DNA of 64,000 nt from a virus (IMGVR_UViG_3300009868_000005:4724-68723); one strand, 5' to 3'; shown: positions 638-51,355, counted from the stretch's first letter. Notes: generated by a model from the sequence alone, not told the origin. A program made the numbers and translations.

Positions 638-3600
638 TGCGTTCGTCCATGCTCCGCTGCTGTTCAGGCTTCGTTGAGGCAGTCAACACGGTCGTTGACA
701 CGTCGGCGTTCGTCTCCATCCTCGGCCCCTCCGACACCGACGTGCAGCGAGCGCTCGAGACGATCGATGGCGTCGAGACCGGCGTGCCCATCGAGGCTGC
801 GTATCCCAGAGGCGTTGTGGACCGAGACGACTCGATCCTGACCTGGGACAACGCGACTAAGACGCTGACCATGGCGATCGAAGCGCCAGCTACCAGCTTT
901 GAAATCTTCGAGGTCGGCGGCGGGACGGTGCAGAAGCACACCTTCGTCACCGATCAATCCTCGACCATTGCCGTGCCCGCGCCTGGGCTCTGGTGGTTCT
1001 GGTACAACGGTGGCGTGCTCTCAAACGGGGCCTCGCCTCCCTACGGGTTCAAGACCACGCTCGTCGCACTCGTCTACCTCGACGCTAGCCTTGACGCCAT
1101 TGCGGTCCTCGACGAGCGACACGGCATCAATATGCCCTGGGCCACGCATGAGTATTTGCACTACGGTATCGGCACGAGGTTCGAGACCGGGCTTGCGATG
1201 GCGCGGGTGGCAAGTGGTGGCGGGGGCGCGGACGGAGACGCCCAGATCACGATCAGTGGCGGAACGATTTGGGACGAGGATATCGACGTATCCATCGTCC
1301 GCAGCGCGGCTCCGGCCAGTATGTTCGAGCAGGAGCTTGGCTCAGGGGTCACTCCGGGACAGTTTCCGATCTACTACAGGCTCGGGGCGGCTGGAGAGTG
1401 GGCCAAGATTGCAGCTACCACATTCCCGGTGCACAACGTCGTTGCCGGGGACCGACCAGCTTTCAACAACTACTCCGGCGGGCTGTGGGGCCTGACCGAA
1501 ATCAGCGCAAACGGTAACTACGCTGTCATGTGGATCTGCGCGACGAACAACGTGGGCCAAGCCGACCCGGCTGGGGCTGGCTATCTCGTCGAGCCTGTCT
1601 TTGCCATCATGGGTCAGGCCGACTATGCCAGCGCAACGGATGCGCAAGATGCAAGCTTCTCGGACCTCAACCTGGGCACGTTCTTCGCCAACGAGTTGAA
1701 ACCCATTTGGAAGCTCATCTATCGATGCCGTGACGGCTATGCGAACAGTGTAAACGCCTACATCTACGAGTACGCCGACCTTCGCAACACGGCTCCGATC
1801 CCCGGTACCGGCTTCGTCGCGACGGACCACAACAGCCTCGCGGGACGAAGCGAGCCGGACTCCCATCCGGCAACGGCCATCTCGGCTGACACCTCGGCAT
1901 TTGCCGGGAACCTGAGCAGCCTCGACGATACGCTCCAGAAGTGCATGGACACGCTCGACAACCTCCTGATCGGGGAGACGGCAACGCTTTACGTCTCCAC
2001 GGCGGGAAGCGACGCGACGGGTACGAGAGGGCTTCTGACTAAGCCCTACGCCACAGTTGTCGGTGCCCTCACCGACGCGAGCAGCGGGGACGTGGTAAAG
2101 CTGGGTCCCGGCACGTTCACTGAGGCTGGACTCGTCATCCCAGACACGCTCACCGACATCTCGATCGTGGGCTCTGGCAGGGGCGTGACGACGCTCACGT
2201 TCAGTGGTGGATACCTCGGCAGGGTCAGCGCAACGGCGATCACGCGCTTCCGGCTCGCTGAGTTGACCTACAGCAGAGGCGCTGGCACGGGCATCAACTT
2301 CGACGGGTCGGCTTCGGCTAATGGCTACTTCAACTCGACCACGGACGGTCTCACGATCGAGAACGTGGACGATGCGAGCAGCGGCGTCGCTGCGGTGGGT
2401 TGGGCGATCGAACGGGCCGGATACGTCCGCTTCCAGAACGTTAGCATGCTTGGCAGTGGTGGGTCGCTTACCTTCACCGATTGCGGCGAGGTGCGGCTCC
2501 GAAACGTGCTCAAGCGAGGCGTGCTCGGGGCCTGGGACCTAATCGAAGCCGTCGCCACCGGGACGCTCCCGACCGGCTTCACCCGGATGTTGTTTGCCTT
2601 CTACTCGGCCAAGATCACCGAGACGACGATCAACGCAAGCAGCCCCGCGCTTGATTTCACGACAGATGCGTCGTGCGAGATCACTGGGTCCGTTATGAAC
2701 TTCAGGCCAGACGCTGTGGCGGCTGAAGAACTGAACGTGTACTTATCGGGCCGGATGGATGATAGTCAAATCAACATCGGAGAGGACACGGCAACGTCAA
2801 CCACTCCGATCCATGCCGAACTTGCCGGGATCACGATGAGTCCAAGTCTGTCCATAACGGGCAGCGATAACGTAGACATCAATGCGAATATCAAAAACTC
2901 TGACGTAGACTCTATCACGGCGACGGAGTCTTACGCAGATGGTACGATCAGTATCAATGCGGATGGCACACGCACAGACTCTGTCGTGCTGAACGCAACT
3001 CTCGGGACCATCGACTCAGAATTCATCAATTCACAGGTTCCCGAGATGCCCACGGTCAGTGGTAATACGAATCTTATCATTCGTGGGACGACAACGGGTA
3101 CGAAGGTGAACAAGGGATGGACCCCTGCTCCAATGGCTTGGAGTTACAATGCCGTAAGTGGAAATATCGATACGGAGACAGATCCCAGGCTATACTTCGA
3201 CAAGGGCGTACCGATCCGTTTTTTCATGCCTGGCGGTGAGTTCATTTATTCGGATGGGCATCCAGAAATAACATCTGTTGACCTTACCGGGTTGCAAGAC
3301 GTTATTGTGGAATCCAGTGGTAGAATGTACCTCAAAGAGGTCGTTCTCGGCGCTGGCAATTATCGTGTCGACGTCTATACGAACGTAGATCCGTCTGGCG
3401 TACTGGAAAACCTAGTTGGTCAAACTTCCATCTACACCATGGCGGGAACATACGCGGTGACTCCGGTTGGTTCTTCTCCGATAGGTGGGACCGTTACTGT
3501 CGGAGCGCTTGTGCTGGTGGATACAAGCTCTGTGTGGGAGTTCTTTAGGTGGGGAGTCGTGACGGAACTATCATCCACGGAAATAGAGTGGGTGGGATGC

Positions 3601-4034: not shown

Positions 4035-5285
4035 ATGGCTTGCATCATCAATGCCTGCGTAGTTAATGGGGCAACCCCGATTGTAAATGCGTTGACTATT
4101 GTCACGCCGCAGGCAAGCGAGCCATTTTTCAATAGCGCCACGGTTACGGTGTCTGGGACGCTTACGAATGCAGCCGACTGTACCGGAGTGAACGTAAACT
4201 ACGCTGGCAATAACTATGCCGCGTCTATCAACGTCGGCGCTGGGACGTGGACCAGAAACGTTACCGCCTATCCCAACAGAACCTACGAAACATTCCAGGT
4301 AACGGGAACGTGGAGTTCTGGCTCTCCATCGCCTGTAGTAGCCAGCAAGACGATCTATATTGTAGTAGCCAGTGTGAGCATTGACTATCCGACCAGTCCC
4401 ACATCTTTGGAAGTGGGCACGTCCATGTACATAGCGGGTACGGCAAACGAACGCCTATACGTGCTAGGAGTGCCAACTCTTCAGTATCCGTACTCCGGTG
4501 GGCCTTACTACAGTGTCACGTATGACTCTGGAACGGGTTCATTCCATAACAATCTATTAGTCCAACCGCAGGCATTGTACGGAGCTAACTCGATAAGTGC
4601 TGGTGTCACGTATCGGATAACCAAGTACTCTGGAACGTTTGATAAGACAGTGGGTGGGCTCTGTACAATCAATGGCTACTACAACACCGGAGTGGAATTC
4701 GTTATCCCGTCCGCGTCTCAGGTCTATTCAGAGGAAGACGAGCTTGCGATTTCGGGCACCGTTGTCAACGCCTCCTACATAACTTCGGTAGTTGGAACCT
4801 ACGCTGGGTCGAATATTGCAACGTTCGTAAATGTCGGCGCGGGTACCTTCACGCAACTCATTGAGGGTATCAAGGCCAGAGCCGACTACACCAGCGTGCT
4901 GGTCACGGCGCACTACGACTTCGGAGGCACACTGGTAGACGATACGGACACGCAGAATATCGTCGTCAATCGGTGGGTGACTCTGACTGCTCCCACGGAA
5001 GGATTCAACGAATATCTTATGCTTGGCTCCGGAACACTCTTTTGTTCCGCTAGACCTTGCATGTACACCACGACAGGTGTCGACTTCCAGATCAACGTGA
5101 ATGGTGCTGGATGGCAGTACCTAGCCACTGGTGTCCAGGGAAGTGGGGATGGGATGTTGATTTGGGCGGTGACGGCAAATATAGACACCTCCCATCTCGG
5201 ATCTGTGCAGGTGAGAGCCGTTGCCTATGGCACCACAACCGTTTACAGTAGCCCAGTCAACGGCACGATACAGGAGCCAGCGTAG
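4035..5285 (+). CDS. Ig-like repeat virion protein
   Basis: Repeated all-beta units (IVTPQASEPF..ATVTVSGT; SIDYPTSPTSLEVGTSMYIAGTA; VIPSASQVY..LAISGTV; TLTAPTEG). AT-rich. Confidence 0.55.
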   Translation: MACIINACVVNGATPIVNALTIVTPQASEPFFNSATVTVSGTLTNAADCTGVNVNYAGNNYAASINVGAGTWTRNVTAYPNRTYETFQVTGTWSSGSPSPVVASKTIYIVVASVSIDYPTSPTSLEVGTSMYIAGTANERLYVLGVPTLQYPYSGGPYYSVTYDSGTGSFHNNLLVQPQALYGANSISAGVTYRITKYSGTFDKTVGGLCTINGYYNTGVEFVIPSASQVYSEEDELAISGTVVNASYITSVVGTYAGSNIATFVNVGAGTFTQLIEGIKARADYTSVLVTAHYDFGGTLVDDTDTQNIVVNRWVTLTAPTEGFNEYLMLGSGTLFCSARPCMYTTTGVDFQINVNGAGWQYLATGVQGSGDGMLIWAVTANIDTSHLGSVQVRAVAYGTTTVYSSPVNGTIQEPA

Positions 5286-5330
5286 GGAGCTTGGGTAAAG
5301 GCATATTATGGTCTATGATGGAGAGAAGAG

Positions 5331-19608: not shown

Positions 19609-19647
19609 GGCTGACAGGTTTGGGGTGGTCGCGTACAATCCCTCCCC

Positions 19648-20679
19648 ATGACGGATTTCTTCTACTGGGGCGGCCCGGTGTACTGCTCGACCGCCGAAAA
19701 GCTCGCCTGGGAGCGGCCCACCAAGGTTTTCTGCAAGCCTCTCGAGGGCTCGAGCAACGGGGCGTTCTTCAGTACCCTCGGGGCTGATCCTGTCGGGTCG
19801 CTGCTTGCGAAGGCCGGCGTCACCGAGCGAGGCAGCATCGGCTTCGGGGGCTTCAGCGCCTTCCACGGTTTTCTGGACCCGCTTCTGCAGGCGCAGGCCG
19901 ATCAGGTGGACTACGTGCACCTCGCGGACGCGTGCTTCCAGGGCGCCGGTGCCACCGCGGCCAAGAAGGGGCTGCTGGCCTTTGCCAAACGAGCCGTGGC
20001 TGGCAAGGCCCGCATGACCGTCACGACCAACGGGCCATGGGACCAGGACATCTCGTACTGGGGGCCGGCGGGAAGCAAGTACGAGGGCACCAAGTTCAGC
20101 CTCACGAGCGGAGCCAAGTGCTTCGGCAACGTCTGGCGGGAAGCCGTCGGAAGCCTCGCCGAGGCCAGCGCGGACATCCCTGCCGGCGTCCCCAAGCCTG
20201 ACCGCATCTTTCGGGCGGGGGAGCTGTACTGGTTCCACTACGAGGGCAAGGGTGTCAAGGACCCCCACGGCTGGCACACCAACGATCTGGCGAGGCCGTT
20301 CATGCAGCTGTACGGGGTGCCGTGGATGGCCGGCCACCGGGGTGCAGGACCCTTGCTGCCGGGATTGCCTTCGATCTCAGGCGAGGGGAGCGCGGGGGTT
20401 GCGGTCCTCCTTCTCGCCCTCGTGGCAGCTGGCATCCTCGGGGGCTACTGGGTCGCCAAGAGCAGGGGGTACCTGCCCAACCACAACGAGGTCCTCGGCT
20501 ACGTGGCGCAGTCCTTCCCGAAGGTCTGTCGATGCTGCGGGAGGTCGTACACCCGAAGAACCTGGGAGCAGCTTCCCATCTGCGGGACGCAGAGCTTCCC
20601 ATGGGGGGAGGAGGGCGAATTTCGCAACTGCCACTGCGGCTCGACCCTGTACGTGATCGTGGTGGAAGGGGATGCGTAG
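19648..20679 (+). CDS. Alpha/beta-hydrolase-like protein + TM helix + C-terminal Zn-binding domain
   Basis: GFGGFSAF (degenerate nucleophile elbow), VHLADACF, late His. TM VAVLLLALVAAGILGGYW. CRCCG...NCHCGSTL. Promoter CTGACA(19611)-N17-TACAAT(19634)-N8-ATG. Confidence 0.6.
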   Translation: MTDFFYWGGPVYCSTAEKLAWERPTKVFCKPLEGSSNGAFFSTLGADPVGSLLAKAGVTERGSIGFGGFSAFHGFLDPLLQAQADQVDYVHLADACFQGAGATAAKKGLLAFAKRAVAGKARMTVTTNGPWDQDISYWGPAGSKYEGTKFSLTSGAKCFGNVWREAVGSLAEASADIPAGVPKPDRIFRAGELYWFHYEGKGVKDPHGWHTNDLARPFMQLYGVPWMAGHRGAGPLLPGLPSISGEGSAGVAVLLLALVAAGILGGYWVAKSRGYLPNHNEVLGYVAQSFPKVCRCCGRSYTRRTWEQLPICGTQSFPWGEEGEFRNCHCGSTLYVIVVEGDA

Positions 20680-43981: not shown

Positions 43982-44389
43982 ATGCGTCCCCGCTACCTCA
44001 ACCAACTCATTCAAGACCAACCCGTCCCTTTGCTGTGGGCGATCACCGCGCAGCCCGTTGACATTGACGGGTGGAGGGAGACCGCGAAGCTTGCTGACGG
44101 CGCGTGCTACGCCAAGGTTGGCACGTCGGCCGAGGTTGTGTTTCGAGGGATTTTGGACGGTGCGGGTCGGCGGTGGATGGTCCTTTCTGCCGTCGGGTGC
44201 TCGCCGACGATGAAGGTGGCCCGTGAGCTTCGCGAGATGTTCTTCCCCGAGCGGGCCATCGTGGCCGTTTCTGTGGGCCCAGACCCGAGCCCCATGCTCG
44301 AGATGTGGTGGTCGGTCGATGGCGACGGGCTTCCGCTCGACGAGGGCTGGCGAGCCGTCATGGCGGAAGTGTCCGGCGATGCAGACTGA
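43982..44389 (+). CDS. Hypothetical protein
   Basis: Promoter TTGACT(43947)-N17-TACAAA(43970)-N6-ATG. Confidence 0.65.
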   Translation: MRPRYLNQLIQDQPVPLLWAITAQPVDIDGWRETAKLADGACYAKVGTSAEVVFRGILDGAGRRWMVLSAVGCSPTMKVARELREMFFPERAIVAVSVGPDPSPMLEMWWSVDGDGLPLDEGWRAVMAEVSGDAD

Positions 44390-44597
44390 AGGCTGGATTC
44401 GGATCGGAAGGTTCGACAAGTCCCAGCGACGTGCGATATGGGCAAGGCGCGTTGGGCCTGACACCATCGAGGTTCGCGGTGGTCGAGAGGGTGACGACAC
44501 AGCGGCAACCCTGTTCCGAAGACAGTTCGAACCGATTTTCGACGTGATCGAAGCGCAGCTCTGGGCTCTGGAGATGGACGGCGACGTGGGGGGTTGA
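44379..44597 (+). CDS. Small hypothetical protein
   Basis: Overlaps the previous stop. MQTEGWIRIGRFD... Confidence 0.55.
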   Translation: MQTEGWIRIGRFDKSQRRAIWARRVGPDTIEVRGGREGDDTAATLFRRQFEPIFDVIEAQLWALEMDGDVGG

Positions 44598-44623
44598 CGC
44601 GCCGGTTTGGTCGGGTGTAGCGT
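44594..44623 (+). promoter_or_regulatory. sigma70-like promoter for the putative sRNA
   Basis: TTGACG-N18-TAGCGT with no start codon downstream. Confidence 0.55.
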
Positions 44624-44629
44624 TCGATC

Positions 44630-44713
44630 TGCCTCCGTGTCACCTCCACGGAGTTGCTGCCCACCTAGCCGTCGCCTCCCCTTCCGCGGCCAGCGTGGGC
44701 GGCAGTTTTTTTT
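44630..44713 (+). ncRNA. Putative small RNA with anti-Shine-Dalgarno loop
   Basis: Hairpin CTCCGTG-[TCACCTC]-CACGGAG (44633..44653), then a long hairpin with a C-rich loop and a T8 tail. Confidence 0.55.
44654..44713 (+). terminator. Intrinsic terminator
   Basis: TTGCTGCCCAC...GTGGGCGGCAG stem (with G-U pairs) followed by TTTTTTTT at 44706..44713. Confidence 0.75.
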
Positions 44714-44853
44714 GGTTGATCGGGGGACGCAATGAAGCTACTTCTGTAGGTGGTCGCAGCAGCCACTCTGACCACTGGGCGGGTTCGGACAGGTTCCGGG
44801 CCCGTTTGGTTTTGTGGTAGGCTGGGGCCGGTTGATTCACCGGCGACTAGGAC

Positions 44854-45006
44854 ATGAAAGCTTACGGATTGGCAGCCAAGCGGCGCACCAGCTGGTTTCA
44901 CTGCTACTGCAAGCTGTGCCGGGGGCCAAGCATCATCAAGTCCCGGGCCAGGCGGCGAGCGCGGCGGGACATTGCCGATCAGATCGGTCCCTACCTACCG
45001 CCCTGA
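44854..45006 (+). CDS. 50-aa basic Cys-containing protein
   Basis: MKAYG...CYCKLC...KSRARRRARRDI; AGGA RBS. Confidence 0.55.
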   Translation: MKAYGLAAKRRTSWFHCYCKLCRGPSIIKSRARRRARRDIADQIGPYLPP

Positions 45007-45944
45007 AGCCTCTCCCAGAACCTGCCCCGATCCGTGGCCGACCACAGCGCAGTGTCGATCTTCTCCCCCTCCCACGTCTCGGCCCACCTCGAGTGCACCG
45101 GAACGCAGAACCCCGCATCGAACAGCGTCCACACCCCCTTGGACTTGCCGAAGTTGTCCGCCTGGCAGTCGCCGAGCACTAGTCCCCGGGCCAGGTACGT
45201 GAGCGCTGCCTTCGCAAACGGGCCGAGCAGGATGTTGCCGCGAAGCCGCTCGAGATGCCACTCGTAAGCCATCAAGCGCACGGCGGCGTGAAGGTCCCGG
45301 TCCTTCCACACGTCCTCGTCCGTGTAGAACCAGTCGATGCCCCGTTTTCTCGGCCGAAACATGCGGCTCGCCTCTCGCTGGCGGCTGCGAAGGACCCTCG
45401 CGAACTCGGTGGGGTGCGCCCCCCGAAGCAGGTGATCGCTGAAGCCCATCGCAACCGTCATACCCGACTGCTGAACCTCGTGCAGCAAGTCGAAAGCATC
45501 AAGACCGCGGTCCTTCTCCCACTTTCGCCTTCGGCGGATCATCTCCTCAAGCGGCAGATCCCCGAAGTCCCATTCATCTTCCAACTCCTTCGGGGGGCGG
45601 TTGTGAGCGTAGTACCAGGCGTGAAACGTTGGCTCCTCCACTGCGGACTTCCACATGATCCAGATCGGCCCCGCGGGGGACCGGACACGAAGGGGCTCGA
45701 GGTACTCGCAGACCCCCTTGGGCCAGAGCTGGGTGATTGCCTGCGCGCCGGCGAAGAACGCCTCCGAGCCCTCGATGGACACCTTGCAGACCCAATCGGG
45801 GTTGCTCGTGGGAAGGACGCACCCGAAGGCGCCGCAACCGAGAAGCTCGGGCACGGGAAGCAAGTCGCGACCGTGCAAGCTGACGATGCCGCCGGCCGCC
45901 GCCGACAGGGTTGCGGTCACCCATTCGGGAATGCGATCGTTCAA
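44991..45944 (-). CDS. Protein-kinase-like (PKL) enzyme 1
   Basis: LLGCGAFGCV (Gly loop), WVCKVS, helix-C Glu, GDCQADN (DxxxxN), LFDAG. Confidence 0.8.
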   Translation of the reverse strand: MNDRIPEWVTATLSAAAGGIVSLHGRDLLPVPELLGCGAFGCVLPTSNPDWVCKVSIEGSEAFFAGAQAITQLWPKGVCEYLEPLRVRSPAGPIWIMWKSAVEEPTFHAWYYAHNRPPKELEDEWDFGDLPLEEMIRRRRKWEKDRGLDAFDLLHEVQQSGMTVAMGFSDHLLRGAHPTEFARVLRSRQREASRMFRPRKRGIDWFYTDEDVWKDRDLHAAVRLMAYEWHLERLRGNILLGPFAKAALTYLARGLVLGDCQADNFGKSKGVWTLFDAGFCVPVHSRWAETWEGEKIDTALWSATDRGRFWERLQGGR

Positions 45945-47058: not shown

Positions 47059-47631
47059 TCAGTACGCAACCCCGACCTGGGAGTCGCGCTTCGCCATCCT
47101 TCCACGGATGACCGCGATGCACTTGGACTGCCCGGCGGCGGGCCTCTCGTGCATGTGGAAACGGACGACCTTCAGCCCCTCGCCTGCGAGATCCGACAGC
47201 GTGATCTCGGAGCGGTGGATCTCGCTCTGTACCCCACCCGCTGCGTCCTGCGGGTAGCCGACAGGCCAGATCGCCACCACGTACGACGAGCGGCATGCCC
47301 AGAATTGCAGAAGCGACAGAGCCTCGTGCTTCCACATGTGCTCGAGCACGTCGCCGAAGACAACGAGGTCGAAACGGCTTTCCGCAAGGCGGCACGACAC
47401 CTTGACAGCCTCGCCGACATCGACCTTCTCGTAGAGCTTCCACTCGATCTCGAACTGCCCTGCGTAGCTCGGCTCGGCTTCGATGCCGTGCATGGTGGCG
47501 GTCGGGACGACTTGCTTGACCAGGCGTCCGATCTTGCCAGCGCCCACGCCGATGTCGAGCACCCTTGCCGGCGCCAGGGCTTTGACGATGCCTAGGAAAG
47601 TGCCTTCGAACTCTCTACCCGAATGCGGCAT
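47059..47631 (-). CDS. Class I SAM methyltransferase
   Basis: VLDIGVGAG, HGIE, FDLVVFGDVLEH. Confidence 0.9.
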   Translation of the reverse strand: MPHSGREFEGTFLGIVKALAPARVLDIGVGAGKIGRLVKQVVPTATMHGIEAEPSYAGQFEIEWKLYEKVDVGEAVKVSCRLAESRFDLVVFGDVLEHMWKHEALSLLQFWACRSSYVVAIWPVGYPQDAAGGVQSEIHRSEITLSDLAGEGLKVVRFHMHERPAAGQSKCIAVIRGRMAKRDSQVGVAY

Positions 47632-47642
47632 GTGTTCCTCAT

Positions 47643-48515
47643 TTACGCAAGTAGGTCCAACATCTCACGTATCGAAGCGTCTCTGTGCGAATCCGAGCAA
47701 TGTTCCTGGATGTACTGCAGGCCGGAATGTGACGAGAGGCATGCGTAGCCTTCGTCTTCGCAACATCGTAGAACGTCGTCCTTTATGGACTCAAACTCCC
47801 AAAAATTTCTGATGTTTTGCGCTGTGACATCAGGCATCGAACCAACCACGGGCACTCCCCTCGCCATGCACTCGTGCTCTGAGAGCCCCATCCCGCTCGC
47901 TGGTGGTAACATCGAAAGGTAACAGGAACACGATCTGTGCTTTGCCTCCAGCTGTGCAGCATTCAAAAAGCCCCCTGGCTGTTCTTGCCCGAACCAAGTG
48001 TGCTTGGGTTTTGAGGGGCCAAGCAGGTGCAGGATCTCTTGTACGCCCGCGCTTGCCATTGGGTGCCTCTGCGAGGGCCGGGAGAGGACCGTCCAAGTGT
48101 CCATCGGCCTCCACTGCCACACCGGATCCACATGGAACGACGGACACAATCTTGCGATGGCAGCGCTTGGAAACCACGTCTTCTGCTGCCGAAGGTTTGC
48201 CAAAGAGAAAACCACCGCTCGGTCGAGACGGTTTCCGACGGGTGCTCGAAAGCGGTACCCCTGGTGAAGGACCTGGACGATCCTTGCGGCTGGCACGTTC
48301 TCCAAGGCCCAGGCATGTTGGCTGGGGCTGCAAACGAAGACCCATTCGACATCGGATCGAAATCCATCCCAAGGCGGCGCCTTGAGTAGGTCGATTTCTT
48401 TGAACCCCGTGGAATCGCCCATGTCCGCAACCTGCAGGTCCCACACCGTAGGGGACACAAGGCGGTTGAGGAGAGTTGGCGACTGGATTGCCCAGAGAAC
48501 CTCAGGTGCGGCCAT
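47643..48515 (-). CDS. GT-B (GT4-like) glycosyltransferase
   Basis: C-terminal GMGLSEHECMARGVPVVGS matches the GT-B signature. Confidence 0.65.
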   Translation of the reverse strand: MAAPEVLWAIQSPTLLNRLVSPTVWDLQVADMGDSTGFKEIDLLKAPPWDGFRSDVEWVFVCSPSQHAWALENVPAARIVQVLHQGYRFRAPVGNRLDRAVVFSLANLRQQKTWFPSAAIARLCPSFHVDPVWQWRPMDTWTVLSRPSQRHPMASAGVQEILHLLGPSKPKHTWFGQEQPGGFLNAAQLEAKHRSCSCYLSMLPPASGMGLSEHECMARGVPVVGSMPDVTAQNIRNFWEFESIKDDVLRCCEDEGYACLSSHSGLQYIQEHCSDSHRDASIREMLDLLA

Positions 48516-48518
48516 TGA

Positions 48519-49079
48519 TCAGATTTTCCTGTACAAATCGGTTTGCCACTTGATGCCCCCACCCTGCGGGCCCGATCCACTGTAGCATTCGGGAACACCC
48601 CACTTTTTCAGGATGCTTTCAGCCATGTGGTAGTCCGCCCGATCGGAATTGTCGAAGATGATGAAGCTTGTGGCAACTTGTACCGCAACGGCGGCGCATG
48701 CGTTCCTTGCCCGACCGTCGATGCACACTACATCAAACTGAGGCGATGATGCCATGGCGATTGGAGCGGCCACATACGCATCGAAGAAGCCTGGGGCCCT
48801 CTTGCTCGCCACCCTTCCAGTCGCACTGGGTCGAGCCAGATGCGGATGCCATAGAGCCATCAAAGTTGCAGGGATGTGCCGCTGAACCCTTTCCAGCCAC
48901 GCTTCGTCGTGCTCCACGGTCACGAGATTCACTCCTGCGTCGAGCCAAAAAAGCGTGGACCCGCCAGCTCCCCACTCGAGCACGCTTCTGACGCCACAAT
49001 CCCTGGAAATGGCAGTGACCCGTTCAATCGCGGACCAAGTGAACCATGGGATTCGCTTTTCAATGCACTCCAAACTCAC
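48519..49079 (-). CDS. SAM methyltransferase (glycan O-methyltransferase-like)
   Basis: VLEWGAGGSTLFW, TVEHDEAW, FDVVCIDGRAR, IIFDNS. Confidence 0.85.
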   Translation of the reverse strand: MSLECIEKRIPWFTWSAIERVTAISRDCGVRSVLEWGAGGSTLFWLDAGVNLVTVEHDEAWLERVQRHIPATLMALWHPHLARPSATGRVASKRAPGFFDAYVAAPIAMASSPQFDVVCIDGRARNACAAVAVQVATSFIIFDNSDRADYHMAESILKKWGVPECYSGSGPQGGGIKWQTDLYRKI

Positions 49080-49086
49080 TATTCAC

Positions 49087-49815
49087 CTACTTCTCTGTGG
49101 TATCGATTCTTTCTTGGTATATCGGCGATCTTCTTATGCCGTCTGGTCGAAGTGTGGTGATGTCGCCCTGATGTTGAACAAGGCTTGGGTTGCTATAAAG
49201 AAGATCCCCGCCCATATGTCTAATGATTGAATGAACCGACAGATCTGTACTCATATCCTCAGATTCCAACACGACAGCCCTAAAGCGTTCGTGCATTTCC
49301 TTCAAAACCTCCTTGGGGTAGAAAGTCATTAGATTTCCCCAAAAGACTGTCTCCCCAGATGGTACCACCTTCTCCTGAGAGCTGGCGAATGGGCACTTAG
49401 GGAATCCATAGTAAACGCTAAGGGCAAAAGGCTTTCCGTTCATAATGGATCTGGCGATGTCTATTCTCTCTTGGAGGTGGTTGAGCCAGCCGTAGCAAGC
49501 TTGGACGTCGTCTTCCATTATGATTATGTCGCTACCTGCGGCAGCCGCCAACTCCAGAGCGTACATGTAGGACCAACCACCACGCCGCTTCGGTTTCCAG
49601 GACCTGACTTTTTCGTATGTTTGTGGGAGTGCGAAGTGTACCTGAATGTTGTCGTGCAGAGCAAGTAGTGATAGAAAAGCCTCGTCCCCGTCGCCGGAAA
49701 CCACATGTACCTTTTCCAAAGACGCGAAGCCCTTCGGATCTCTTAGCGATAGATTCAGAAGGGTAGTGTACACGTTGGTGTCGCTTCTCTTGACCGCTCG
49801 TATGAAGAGTCTCAT
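49087..49815 (-). CDS. GT-A fold glycosyltransferase
   Basis: IIIMEDDV (DxD-like) and PSLVQHQG. Confidence 0.75.
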   Translation of the reverse strand: MRLFIRAVKRSDTNVYTTLLNLSLRDPKGFASLEKVHVVSGDGDEAFLSLLALHDNIQVHFALPQTYEKVRSWKPKRRGGWSYMYALELAAAAGSDIIIMEDDVQACYGWLNHLQERIDIARSIMNGKPFALSVYYGFPKCPFASSQEKVVPSGETVFWGNLMTFYPKEVLKEMHERFRAVVLESEDMSTDLSVHSIIRHMGGDLLYSNPSLVQHQGDITTLRPDGIRRSPIYQERIDTTEK

Positions 49816-50594
49816 TTTTCCTCCTCAAATCTGGCGGTGGGGTGGTCTCTGTGAGCGGGTGACAACCTTTCTCCTCGCATCCAGCTGCTGTACTCCCCCA
49901 CATGTTTTGCCAGAGAAGGTATCGTCACAAATAGAGGCGTCCTTGCGGATAGAAAGAAGTTTTTCGTCGCTTGGTCCCCTATGTACCTACTGTCTTCGGG
50001 GCAGATGTCATGCCTGTCCCCGCTCCATCTGTTTACGCAGCCCTGTAGATAGGCAGCCATGGCAGCCGCCGTAGACCTTGGATACGCTAGTAGCTGGTTT
50101 CCCCAGAAAAGCTTCGGATTCACGAACTCGGCTATACAGTCGCCGCCTGGGGTTGATACTGGTTTTCCAAAACACCATAGTGGATGAGATGAGCACGCGC
50201 TTATACCGTAATCCACAACCTTGGAGGCGGAAGCGAGTGCATGTAGACGCTTCAGCCAATCTCTTGCGAGAACAATGTCGTCCTCTGCGAAAACACAAAG
50301 ATCTGCCCCCGACCTGGCTAACCACCGGTGACTTCGCAAGAGATTCCAAGTCAAGTGATAGCCACGATGTGTCTCTTCGCCGCCCCACGCCTCCCAATCG
50401 CTTTCGGTTGTTTTCATAAACTCCACACACGATGGGAGCCTGTCTTCGTAGCCTTCTGGTACGGGGCAGCCTATGCTAACGCAAATACGAACAGGTAGGT
50501 TAGACAGGTTTTTTTCGATTAGCTCTCGGATTGTTGCGTCAAGAGTGCCGCCCTTTGGACGAGAGACTGTGGCGATGCATATCGCGGTCACCAT
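49812..50594 (-). CDS. GT-A fold glycosyltransferase (paralogue)
   Basis: VFAEDDIVL, FWGNQ, PSLAKHVG. Confidence 0.75.
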   Translation of the reverse strand: MVTAICIATVSRPKGGTLDATIRELIEKNLSNLPVRICVSIGCPVPEGYEDRLPSCVEFMKTTESDWEAWGGEETHRGYHLTWNLLRSHRWLARSGADLCVFAEDDIVLARDWLKRLHALASASKVVDYGISACSSHPLWCFGKPVSTPGGDCIAEFVNPKLFWGNQLLAYPRSTAAAMAAYLQGCVNRWSGDRHDICPEDSRYIGDQATKNFFLSARTPLFVTIPSLAKHVGEYSSWMRGERLSPAHRDHPTARFEEEK

Positions 50595-51355
50595 TCTTGA
50601 TCCTCAAAACCTTTTGGAAAACCACTTTCGGGCATAGGGCATGTGGAGCACAGCTCGAAATGCTTCCTACCCCCCCGCTTCTCAAGAACTCTCGCAGCCT
50701 TTCGCCTTGCTTCGCAGTCCCAAGCGTCGCGTAATCGAACATCGAATGCGTTTGGAAGGCCAAATTCAGTGTTGATGTCGTAGCAGCACAGAGGCATTGA
50801 GCCATCGTATTGAACGATCAACTTCTCGTGTGGGCGGAAGCATGACGCCTCCGAATGAATTACCCCTCGCCGGGGAACATGGGGCCTAGGTCCCATTTCT
50901 GACAAAGTTTTGAAGCGAGCTACGGCGCCCAGCTTTGATTTCCACCAGGCGACAGACTCCCGTGCCTTCTCCGCGTCCTGTTCGTAGATGCCCACCTGTA
51001 CCCAGCCGAAGGCTTTTTTTGATCTCTCTATGAGGTCTGGGCGCTTCCGAAGTACGTCACCATTCGTATTCACGAAGGTGAACATGCCGTACCCCTTTGC
51101 TATTTCTGCAAAGTCTAGGAGTCGCTCGTCAAGATACGGCTCGCTCATCAAGTAAAACGTCACGGCCCCGCGGAAGTTCAGTTCGCTTGCTTCTCGCAAC
51201 AGCCTTTCACATTCGGCAGTGGGCATTCGCTTTCGTACAGGCTGCCCTGTGTCCGTAAATCGTCGCGATGTCAGGTCTCCCTGCCGCATGCACCACGGGC
51301 AAGACCGATTGCAATGGCTGGTCAGCTCGAGCACGAGCATTCCGAATGCCTTCAT
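50588..51355 (-). CDS. Radical SAM/SPASM-domain protein
   Basis: ELTSHCNRSCPWC (CxxxCxxC), SEP, TNG. C-terminal SC...DGSMPLCCYD...CSTC. Confidence 0.9.
   Translation of the reverse strand: MKAFGMLVLELTSHCNRSCPWCMRQGDLTSRRFTDTGQPVRKRMPTAECERLLREASELNFRGAVTFYLMSEPYLDERLLDFAEIAKGYGMFTFVNTNGDVLRKRPDLIERSKKAFGWVQVGIYEQDAEKARESVAWWKSKLGAVARFKTLSEMGPRPHVPRRGVIHSEASCFRPHEKLIVQYDGSMPLCCYDINTEFGLPNAFDVRLRDAWDCEARRKAARVLEKRGGRKHFELCSTCPMPESGFPKGFEDQEW

Follow-up and report, generated by a model that had tools for sequence, protein, structure and literature searches.

A candidate terminated leader RNA ahead of a conserved five-codon minigene in an uncultured phage, probably of an actinobacterial host

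We analyzed positions 44594-44713 of a 64-kb stretch of viral DNA (the window), which belongs to a 68.7-kb IMG/VR virus record with an estimated completeness of 57%. This segment reads best as a real plus-strand transcription unit that would form a lineage-specific 5' leader or attenuator of a minigene locus, an interpretation to which we assign a probability of about 0.45. In comparisons of five lineages, the conserved part of the locus is a five-codon open reading frame (mini-ORF) together with the terminator that follows it, and this minigene is a new element in the picture of the locus. The original prediction had proposed a free-standing small RNA gene. The sequence does contain a discrete promoter-to-terminator unit; the conserved minigene and second terminator downstream had been missed, and because they follow the unit, its RNA looks more like a leader than like the product of a free-standing gene.

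Setting and features of the predicted transcription unit

The neighborhood of the element matched no deposited phage in DNA (megablast, blastn) or protein searches. The amidase (lysin) domain encoded by the record matches only phages of Actinobacteria, at ~30% identity (phages of Mycobacterium, Propionibacterium/Cutibacterium, Gordonia, Rhodococcus, Arthrobacter, and Nocardia), and the host is therefore probably an actinobacterium. In a crude gene map, a plus-strand gene array (~29.9-44.6 kb) meets a minus-strand array running from 52.0 back to 45.0 kb, and the element is placed exactly where the two arrays converge. The features of the region are as follows.

44379-44597, plus strand: 73-aa gene, the last of the long rightward array (from its reading frame and codon-position GC)
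44594-44599 and 44618-44623, plus strand: -35 and -10 hexamers of the promoter-like site TTGACG-N18-TAGCGT, with a predicted transcription start near 44630
44633-44653, plus strand: hairpin 1, a 7-bp stem (CUCCGUG/CACGGAG) with the loop UCACCUC (the "anti-SD" loop)
44654-44705, plus strand: hairpin 2, 19 pairs, GC-rich, with the loop CCUCCCCUUC
44706-44713, plus strand: U8, which with hairpin 2 makes up the predicted intrinsic terminator T1
44716-44727, plus strand: conserved TTGATC, which reads TTGAAC in relatives, and behind it GGGGGA, a ribosome-binding site rich in G, from alignments
44732-44749, plus strand: mini-ORF ATG AAG CTA CTT CTG TAG (MKLLL), from the five-lineage comparison
44750-44817, plus strand: short hairpin region with conserved TCGCAGC, then the second terminator T2 (44774-44810) and a U-rich tail
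44832-44846: end of homology with the close relative L003, where L003 and L009 have ~130 additional bases
44991-45944, minus strand: convergent 317-aa gene, located at the junction of the plus and minus units and used as an anchor of synteny to find relatives

The TGA stop codon of the 73-aa gene (44595-44597) falls within the -35 hexamer, which puts the element immediately behind the final gene of the long co-directional array. Homologues of the 73-aa protein (P0004-P0006) are 81-91% identical, and searches of Pfam and PHROG with the 317-aa protein returned no match. Between the minigene unit and the convergent gene lies a 50-aa Arg/Cys-rich ORF (44854-45006, plus strand) with an AGGA ribosome-binding site, sharing 16 nt with the 3' end of the convergent gene; its third-position GC is high, but it has no homologue or family match. 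Farther into the minus array, a low-GC block (47059-51355; glycosyltransferases and methyltransferases according to the original prediction) is missing from the syntenic relatives L009 and L011, where RadC and APS-kinase genes take its place.

The promoter hexamers, the 7-bp hairpin, the hairpin with a C-rich loop, and the run of eight U residues that had been predicted were all found at their coordinates. The octamer UCACCUCC occupies 44640-44647 in hairpin 1. The stretch of 93-96 nt folds at -40.2 kcal/mol (z = -3.9), and none of 200 shuffled sequences was as stable. Both C- or CU-rich loops, UCACCUC and CCUCCCCUUC, are exposed in the minimum-energy and centroid folds. The claim that no ORF lies behind the promoter held for ordinary genes, and no coding sequence was found between promoter and terminator (44624-44713); it did not hold for the conserved five-codon ORF that begins at 44732. 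A minus-strand gene start behind GGAGGTGA was considered and rejected, because the only properly spaced start codon is the GTG of the motif itself and the frame has no coding signal. A promoter-like site and a terminator with no ORF between them have, at the sequence level, the layout of a small RNA gene.

T1 ranked first on both strands of the window in a scan that took in all T runs preceded by a hairpin, with a hairpin energy of -29.5 kcal/mol and the longest T run in the scan (8 T). Its hairpin begins 57 nt past the stop codon at 44597, and with its GC-rich stem running straight into a U tract the structure is that of an intrinsic (Rho-independent) terminator. The promoter pattern TTGACA (with at most one mismatch)-N16-19-TANNNT is rare, with 15 matches in 128 kb (both strands). 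Five of the 15 matches are intergenic, though intergenic DNA makes up 13% of the total. At the four intergenic matches outside the element (19611, 20687, and 59305, plus strand; 29736, minus strand), 8 to 87 nt separate the -10 hexamer from a gene start, and two of them stand at leaderless distance: CTGACA-N17-TACAAT (19611-19650, plus strand) and TTGACA-N16-TATAGT (29736-29698, minus strand) end 8 nt ahead of an ATG, and the genes that begin there (19648 and, on the minus strand, 29700) are therefore probably leaderless.

A strict sigma-70 scan found no promoter in the element, whose -10 hexamer fits TATAAT at three of six positions by the E. coli standard. Nevertheless, the searched stretch, from the upstream stop codon to the mini-ORF, contains a single match to the pattern in the window and in each of the diverged relatives L009 and L011, and the upstream genes beside these sites are unrelated across the three lineages. 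From the background rate of the window, the probability that all three sites occur by chance is ~1e-5. These features, their rarity, and their recurrence at the same position are observations, from which we infer promoter activity and efficient termination. We conclude that the predicted promoter and terminator are well supported. An RNA of ~83 nt is likely made, because no terminator in the window outranks T1 and the promoter type recurs in three diverged lineages.

The conserved minigene and its relatives

Diverged relatives were found through homologues of the convergent 317-aa gene, which led to four syntenic loci (L009, L011, L014, and L015). These loci and the close relative L003 are compared with the window below; identities are those of the 317-aa homologue to that of the window.

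Window (reference): TTGACG-N18-TAGCGT; hairpin 1, hairpin 2, and U8; MKLLL
L003: ATG AAG CTA CTT CTA TAG, MKLLL, at 2895-2912
L009: 57% identity; TCGACA-N17-TAGGGT; 6-bp hairpin with the loop CCUUCCUCAC, long hairpin, and UUUU; ATG AAA CTA CTT CTG TGA, MKLLL, at 5158-5175(-)
L014: 47% identity; contig ends 25 nt ahead of the mini-ORF; ATG AAG CTA GGA CTT TGA, MKLGL, at 1169-1186(-)
L015: 46% identity; weak promoter candidates only; short leader, ~50 nt from the upstream stop to the ATG; ATG AAG CTA TTG ATC TGA, MKLLI, at 5034-5051(-)
L011: 44% identity; GTGACA-N18-TAGATT after an unrelated gene; short leader of ~31 nt; ATG AAA CTA GGG TTG TGA, MKLGL, at 5277-5294(-)

The conserved stretch (44716-44817) opens with TTGA(A/T)C and continues with a ribosome-binding site rich in G, an ATG with exactly four further codons, a stop codon, the short hairpin region with TCGCAGC, and T2. 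In all five lineages the mini-ORF has a fixed length of five codons, its stop (TAG or TGA) is never shifted, and a G-rich stretch stands 0-4 nt ahead of the ATG. Codon 2 varies synonymously (AAG or AAA), and codon 5 specifies Leu by CTG, CTA, TTG, or CTT, or Ile by ATC. A single instance of the pattern ATGAARCTANNNNNNTRR was found in the window (0 expected) and in each syntenic locus. T2 is a GC-rich hairpin whose 3' arm (GGGCCCG) and U run are invariant in the five lineages; apart from T2, the RNAalifold consensus of the minigene unit is weak. Minigene and T2 have thus been kept in five lineages, though the neighboring 317-aa homologue is just 44-57% identical to that of the window. We also tried TTGAnC-N17/18-TAnnnN as a second promoter before T2, which fits L011 only (T at the last -10 position); the mini-ORF fits the conservation better. 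By sequence comparison, then, the mini-ORF and T2 are the conserved part of the locus, and the mini-ORF is probably translated. If it is, a five-codon ORF with synonymous changes in five lineages would be a rare natural viral case of a conserved peptide minigene.

The two hairpins ahead of the minigene are more restricted. They are present in two of the four lineages in which this stretch can be read (the window and L009) and absent in L011 and L015. L009 keeps a promoter, a hairpin with a CU-rich loop, a long hairpin, and a U run at the equivalent place, in a different sequence, and the stop codon of an unrelated 129-aa gene sits inside its -10 hexamer. A covariance model of the window element scored 6.2 bits against L009 (E = 0.064 within the 318-nt syntenic gap); the similarity of the L009 copy is therefore weak and borderline, and it comes without statistically valid covariation. 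On conservation of the loop in relatives, which the original prediction had named as a check, the picture is mixed: loop 1 of L009 is again CU-rich, on a different 6-bp stem, but loop 2 (UUCGC) is not C-rich, and L011 and L015 have no hairpins.

Close relatives were uninformative in this respect. L003 (a JGI contig) and the sequencing runs X2-X4 differ from the window at 0-5 positions across 44575-44832, and at 25-32 positions in the upstream 73-aa gene. We considered and rejected the idea that the block is under constraint in these relatives, as identity to L003 varies from patch to patch throughout (73-100% per 100-nt stretch). What is truly anomalous in this comparison is the 73-aa gene, which is hypervariable: a patch at 44440-44575 carries differences and in-frame indels, and the flanks are 98-100% identical in relatives. 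L004 and L005 encode homologues of the 73-aa protein that are ~80% identical; their homology to the window is lost at ~44580, beyond which they carry unrelated genes. Judged by these end points, the block is a mosaic module, because homology with L004 and L005 stops at ~44580 and homology with L003 stops at ~44832-44846.

Several other observations concern the surroundings of the unit in relatives. The ~130 bases beyond the second terminator are conserved between L003 (2996-3100) and L009 (5013-5098(-)) and missing in the window at ~44832-44846. Among them are the hairpin ACC(C)GG-UUGGACU-CCGG(G)U and, after it, GGCCC(U/A)ACC(A/U), an arrangement with a loose likeness to the T-arm and acceptor end of a tRNA; ARAGORN and Rfam called nothing in these bases, and their consensus fold is weak. 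In L011 (4364-4839 and 4876-5208), two tRNA-Ile calls, a weaker tRNA-like match, and a weakly PTH2-like (peptidyl-tRNA hydrolase) gene lie beside the minigene unit. Further fragments are present in soil, sludge, cave, and sediment samples.

Pattern searches gave no further copies. The 21-mer of hairpin 1 had no match in IMG/VR or the JGI metagenomes; its one match in GTDB genomes lies in an AT-rich coding region of an unrelated MAG and was set aside as chance, as was the one AT-rich match in IMG/VR to the promoter hexamers plus loop. Two minigene-plus-T2 patterns had no match in IMG/VR, scans of IMG/VR and JGI contigs were empty when seeded with proteins (the 156-aa protein, the 317-aa protein, and GP88), and a search of the record itself with the covariance model R1 found no paralogue of the element.

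Possible function of the predicted RNA

The promoter (44594), T1 (to 44713), and the SD sequence and ATG (44722-44734) stand in the order of a leader or attenuator, all on the plus strand. The relatives without the two hairpins have a similar promoter-type site ~35-50 nt ahead of the minigene, and because they keep this promoter type there, a leader or attenuator is the most likely role of the RNA. By this model, a housekeeping-type promoter that overlaps the stop codon of the last array gene would drive an untranslated RNA of ~83 nt, made up of the 7-bp hairpin with its CU-rich loop and the 19-bp GC-rich hairpin and ending at U8. Most transcripts would halt at U8 and release the short RNA as the default product, and read-through transcripts would take in the minigene and run to T2. 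T1 would additionally end the upstream operon where the convergent minus-strand genes meet it; since a terminator is expected here anyway, hairpin 2 and U8 need no small RNA to explain them. Little read-through to the minigene is expected because T1 is so strong, which is awkward for a leader role.

We looked for cis pairing that could link leader and minigene. In the predicted fold of the read-through RNA, the probability that the minigene SD is unpaired is 0.12 in the window, 0.17 in L015, 0.47 in L009, and 0.54 in L011, so that the SD counts as paired in the first two and not in the last two. Duplexes between CU-rich leader stretches and the SD were not better than those of shuffled leaders (p = 0.90, 0.17, 0.17, and 0.08), and pairing of loop 1 with the minigene region gave p = 0.22 and 0.08; these comparisons lend no support to a specific pairing. 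Minigene translation and any regulatory effect of the leader are put forward as predictions.

The original prediction had the RNA acting in trans: the CU-rich loops (UCACCUCC and CCUCCCC) of the ~83-nt RNA would pair with SD sequences of phage or host mRNAs and block their translation, and the leaderless phage genes would escape. Such an action would resemble that of 6C/B11 in Actinobacteria or of CU-loop small RNAs in Firmicutes. Consistent with this possibility, the promoter and terminator are supported, two CCUCC motifs lie in, or mostly in, predicted loops, and loop 1 of the diverged L009 copy, CCUUCCUCAC, is likewise CU-rich, with a stem that differs. The phage does appear to carry leaderless genes (behind the promoter-like sites at 19611 and 29736(-), 8 nt ahead of an ATG), and Actinobacteria, the probable host group, have 6C, whose C-rich loops pair with G-rich ribosome-binding sites and require no chaperone (PMC6486639). 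The sites proposed as targets (21731, 35547, and 54029, and GGAGGTG in the three junction repeats) also exist.

However, these motifs are not enriched. CACCTCC occurs 18 times in the window (12.5 expected) and GAGGTGA 13 times (10.9 expected), both at chance frequency. Three CCTCC within 50 nt form a unique cluster in the window, yet such a cluster is present in 60% of shuffled genomes. The folding criterion applied to the element yields 19 CCUCC-displaying hairpin loops across the window, that of the element being the sole intergenic one. Target ranking, which had been suggested as a check, showed no preference for translation starts: the duplex energy of the exposed segments was -15.30 kcal/mol with 85 crude starts and -15.37 kcal/mol with 531 gene-internal controls (p = 0.56), in a comparison weakened by the crude gene starts and limited to phage mRNAs. 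Loop 2 of L009 is not C-rich, and the hairpins are lost in L011 and L015. Membership in the named families of small RNAs (6C, AbcR, or the cuckoo type) was likewise not borne out, as no Rfam family reached its gathering threshold. The best match was mmgR (17.5 bits against a gathering score of 41; E = 0.41), 6C gave no match in the 501-nt region at E values up to 10, and Rfam searches of L003, L009, and L011 returned nothing; nor does the record hold a paralogue. Occlusion of SD-led mRNAs is thus unsupported by these comparisons, a global anti-SD role of the RNA is improbable, and a trans-acting regulator of any such kind is, in our judgment, an unlikely explanation of the element. The copy of the 16S tail is not functional evidence here, because it occurs at chance frequency and lies outside the conserved part of the locus. 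A general caution follows: a hairpin loop with eight bases identical to the 16S tail does not, by itself, amount to evidence of function.

We likewise doubt that the element is only a terminator, in which T1 and a backup T2 would end the rightward operon at the convergent junction, the promoter match would be inactive, hairpin 1 would be a 3' UTR accessory for stability or pausing, and CCUCC would be incidental. The element does begin at the stop codon of the last plus-strand gene and face a convergent gene, no terminator in the window is stronger than T1, the motifs show no enrichment, and the strict promoter scan was empty. Against this interpretation, promoter-like sites recur at an equal position in three lineages beside unrelated genes, each of the other intergenic matches in the window lies ahead of a gene, and a promoter-like site ahead of the minigene is kept even in relatives without T1.

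A more elaborate proposal, which we regard as a long shot, is that the whole 230-nt locus is a ribosome-directed device of an uncultured actinophage clade. A translated SD-MKL(L/G)(L/I)-stop minigene would act on the translating ribosome or the tRNA pool, either by ejecting a drug, as pentapeptide minigenes do, or by loading peptidyl-tRNA, as the lambda bar minigenes do. The RNA with loops resembling the 16S tail would gate or complement the minigene, as an attenuator in cis or in trans on SD sites. Least probable is an element that acts as DNA (a mobile or recombination module, or an attachment or replication site, with hairpins incidental to RNA): homology with L004 and L005 stops at ~44580 and that with L003 at ~44832-44846, so that the block behaves as a mosaic module, but its ends carry no inverted or direct repeats of note, the record (57% complete) encodes neither an integrase nor a resolvase, no second copy was found in the record or in another context in three public collections, and the strand-specific U8 and promoter geometry point to RNA.

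Comparison with known systems

The leader or attenuator that we favor has its closest counterparts among promoter-proximal terminated leaders and attenuators, such as lambda 6S RNA (pR' to tR') and the uORF-controlled terminators of Actinobacteria. The element resembles these in having a strong predicted intrinsic terminator within ~85 nt of the promoter, a short ORF beyond it, and a short RNA as the expected default product. Unlike attenuators, it showed no antiterminator protein or alternative anti-terminator pairing, and what follows on the same strand is only a five-codon ORF and a second terminator rather than a conserved protein gene. The alphaproteobacterial RNAs mmgR, "cuckoo," and AbcR share with it CU-rich anti-SD motifs in hairpin loops ahead of a terminator; they differ in that the mmgR score is under the gathering score and the host clade of the phage is probably another one (Actinobacteria).

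The lambda bar minigenes are an example of peptide minigenes, and we know of no natural conserved pentapeptide genes in phages. Erythromycin-resistance peptides of 4-6 residues, often Leu-rich, eject the drug at termination (PMC2928234), and the mini-ORF is like these macrolide-resistance pentapeptides in length and Leu-rich composition only.

Were the RNA to act in trans, the best model would be the 6C/B11 small RNA of Actinobacteria, whose C-rich loops bind G-rich ribosome-binding sites with no need of a chaperone (PMC6486639). Both are short RNAs of a high-GC setting with C-rich loops on stem-loops. 6C/B11 is chromosomal, whereas the RNA of the element would be phage-borne, has no Rfam match to 6C, and in its single diverged copy keeps one of the two loops CU-rich. 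In the mycobacteriophages L5, D29, and StarStuff, intergenic regions yield abundant small RNAs without known function (PMC5712189). The element shares with these RNAs an intergenic location in a probable actinophage; it has no sequence similarity to any deposited phage, and its RNA is known from prediction alone, whereas theirs were observed experimentally. Small RNAs of actinobacterial phages have thus been observed but not explained, and a positionally conserved promoter-to-terminator unit provides a concrete candidate.
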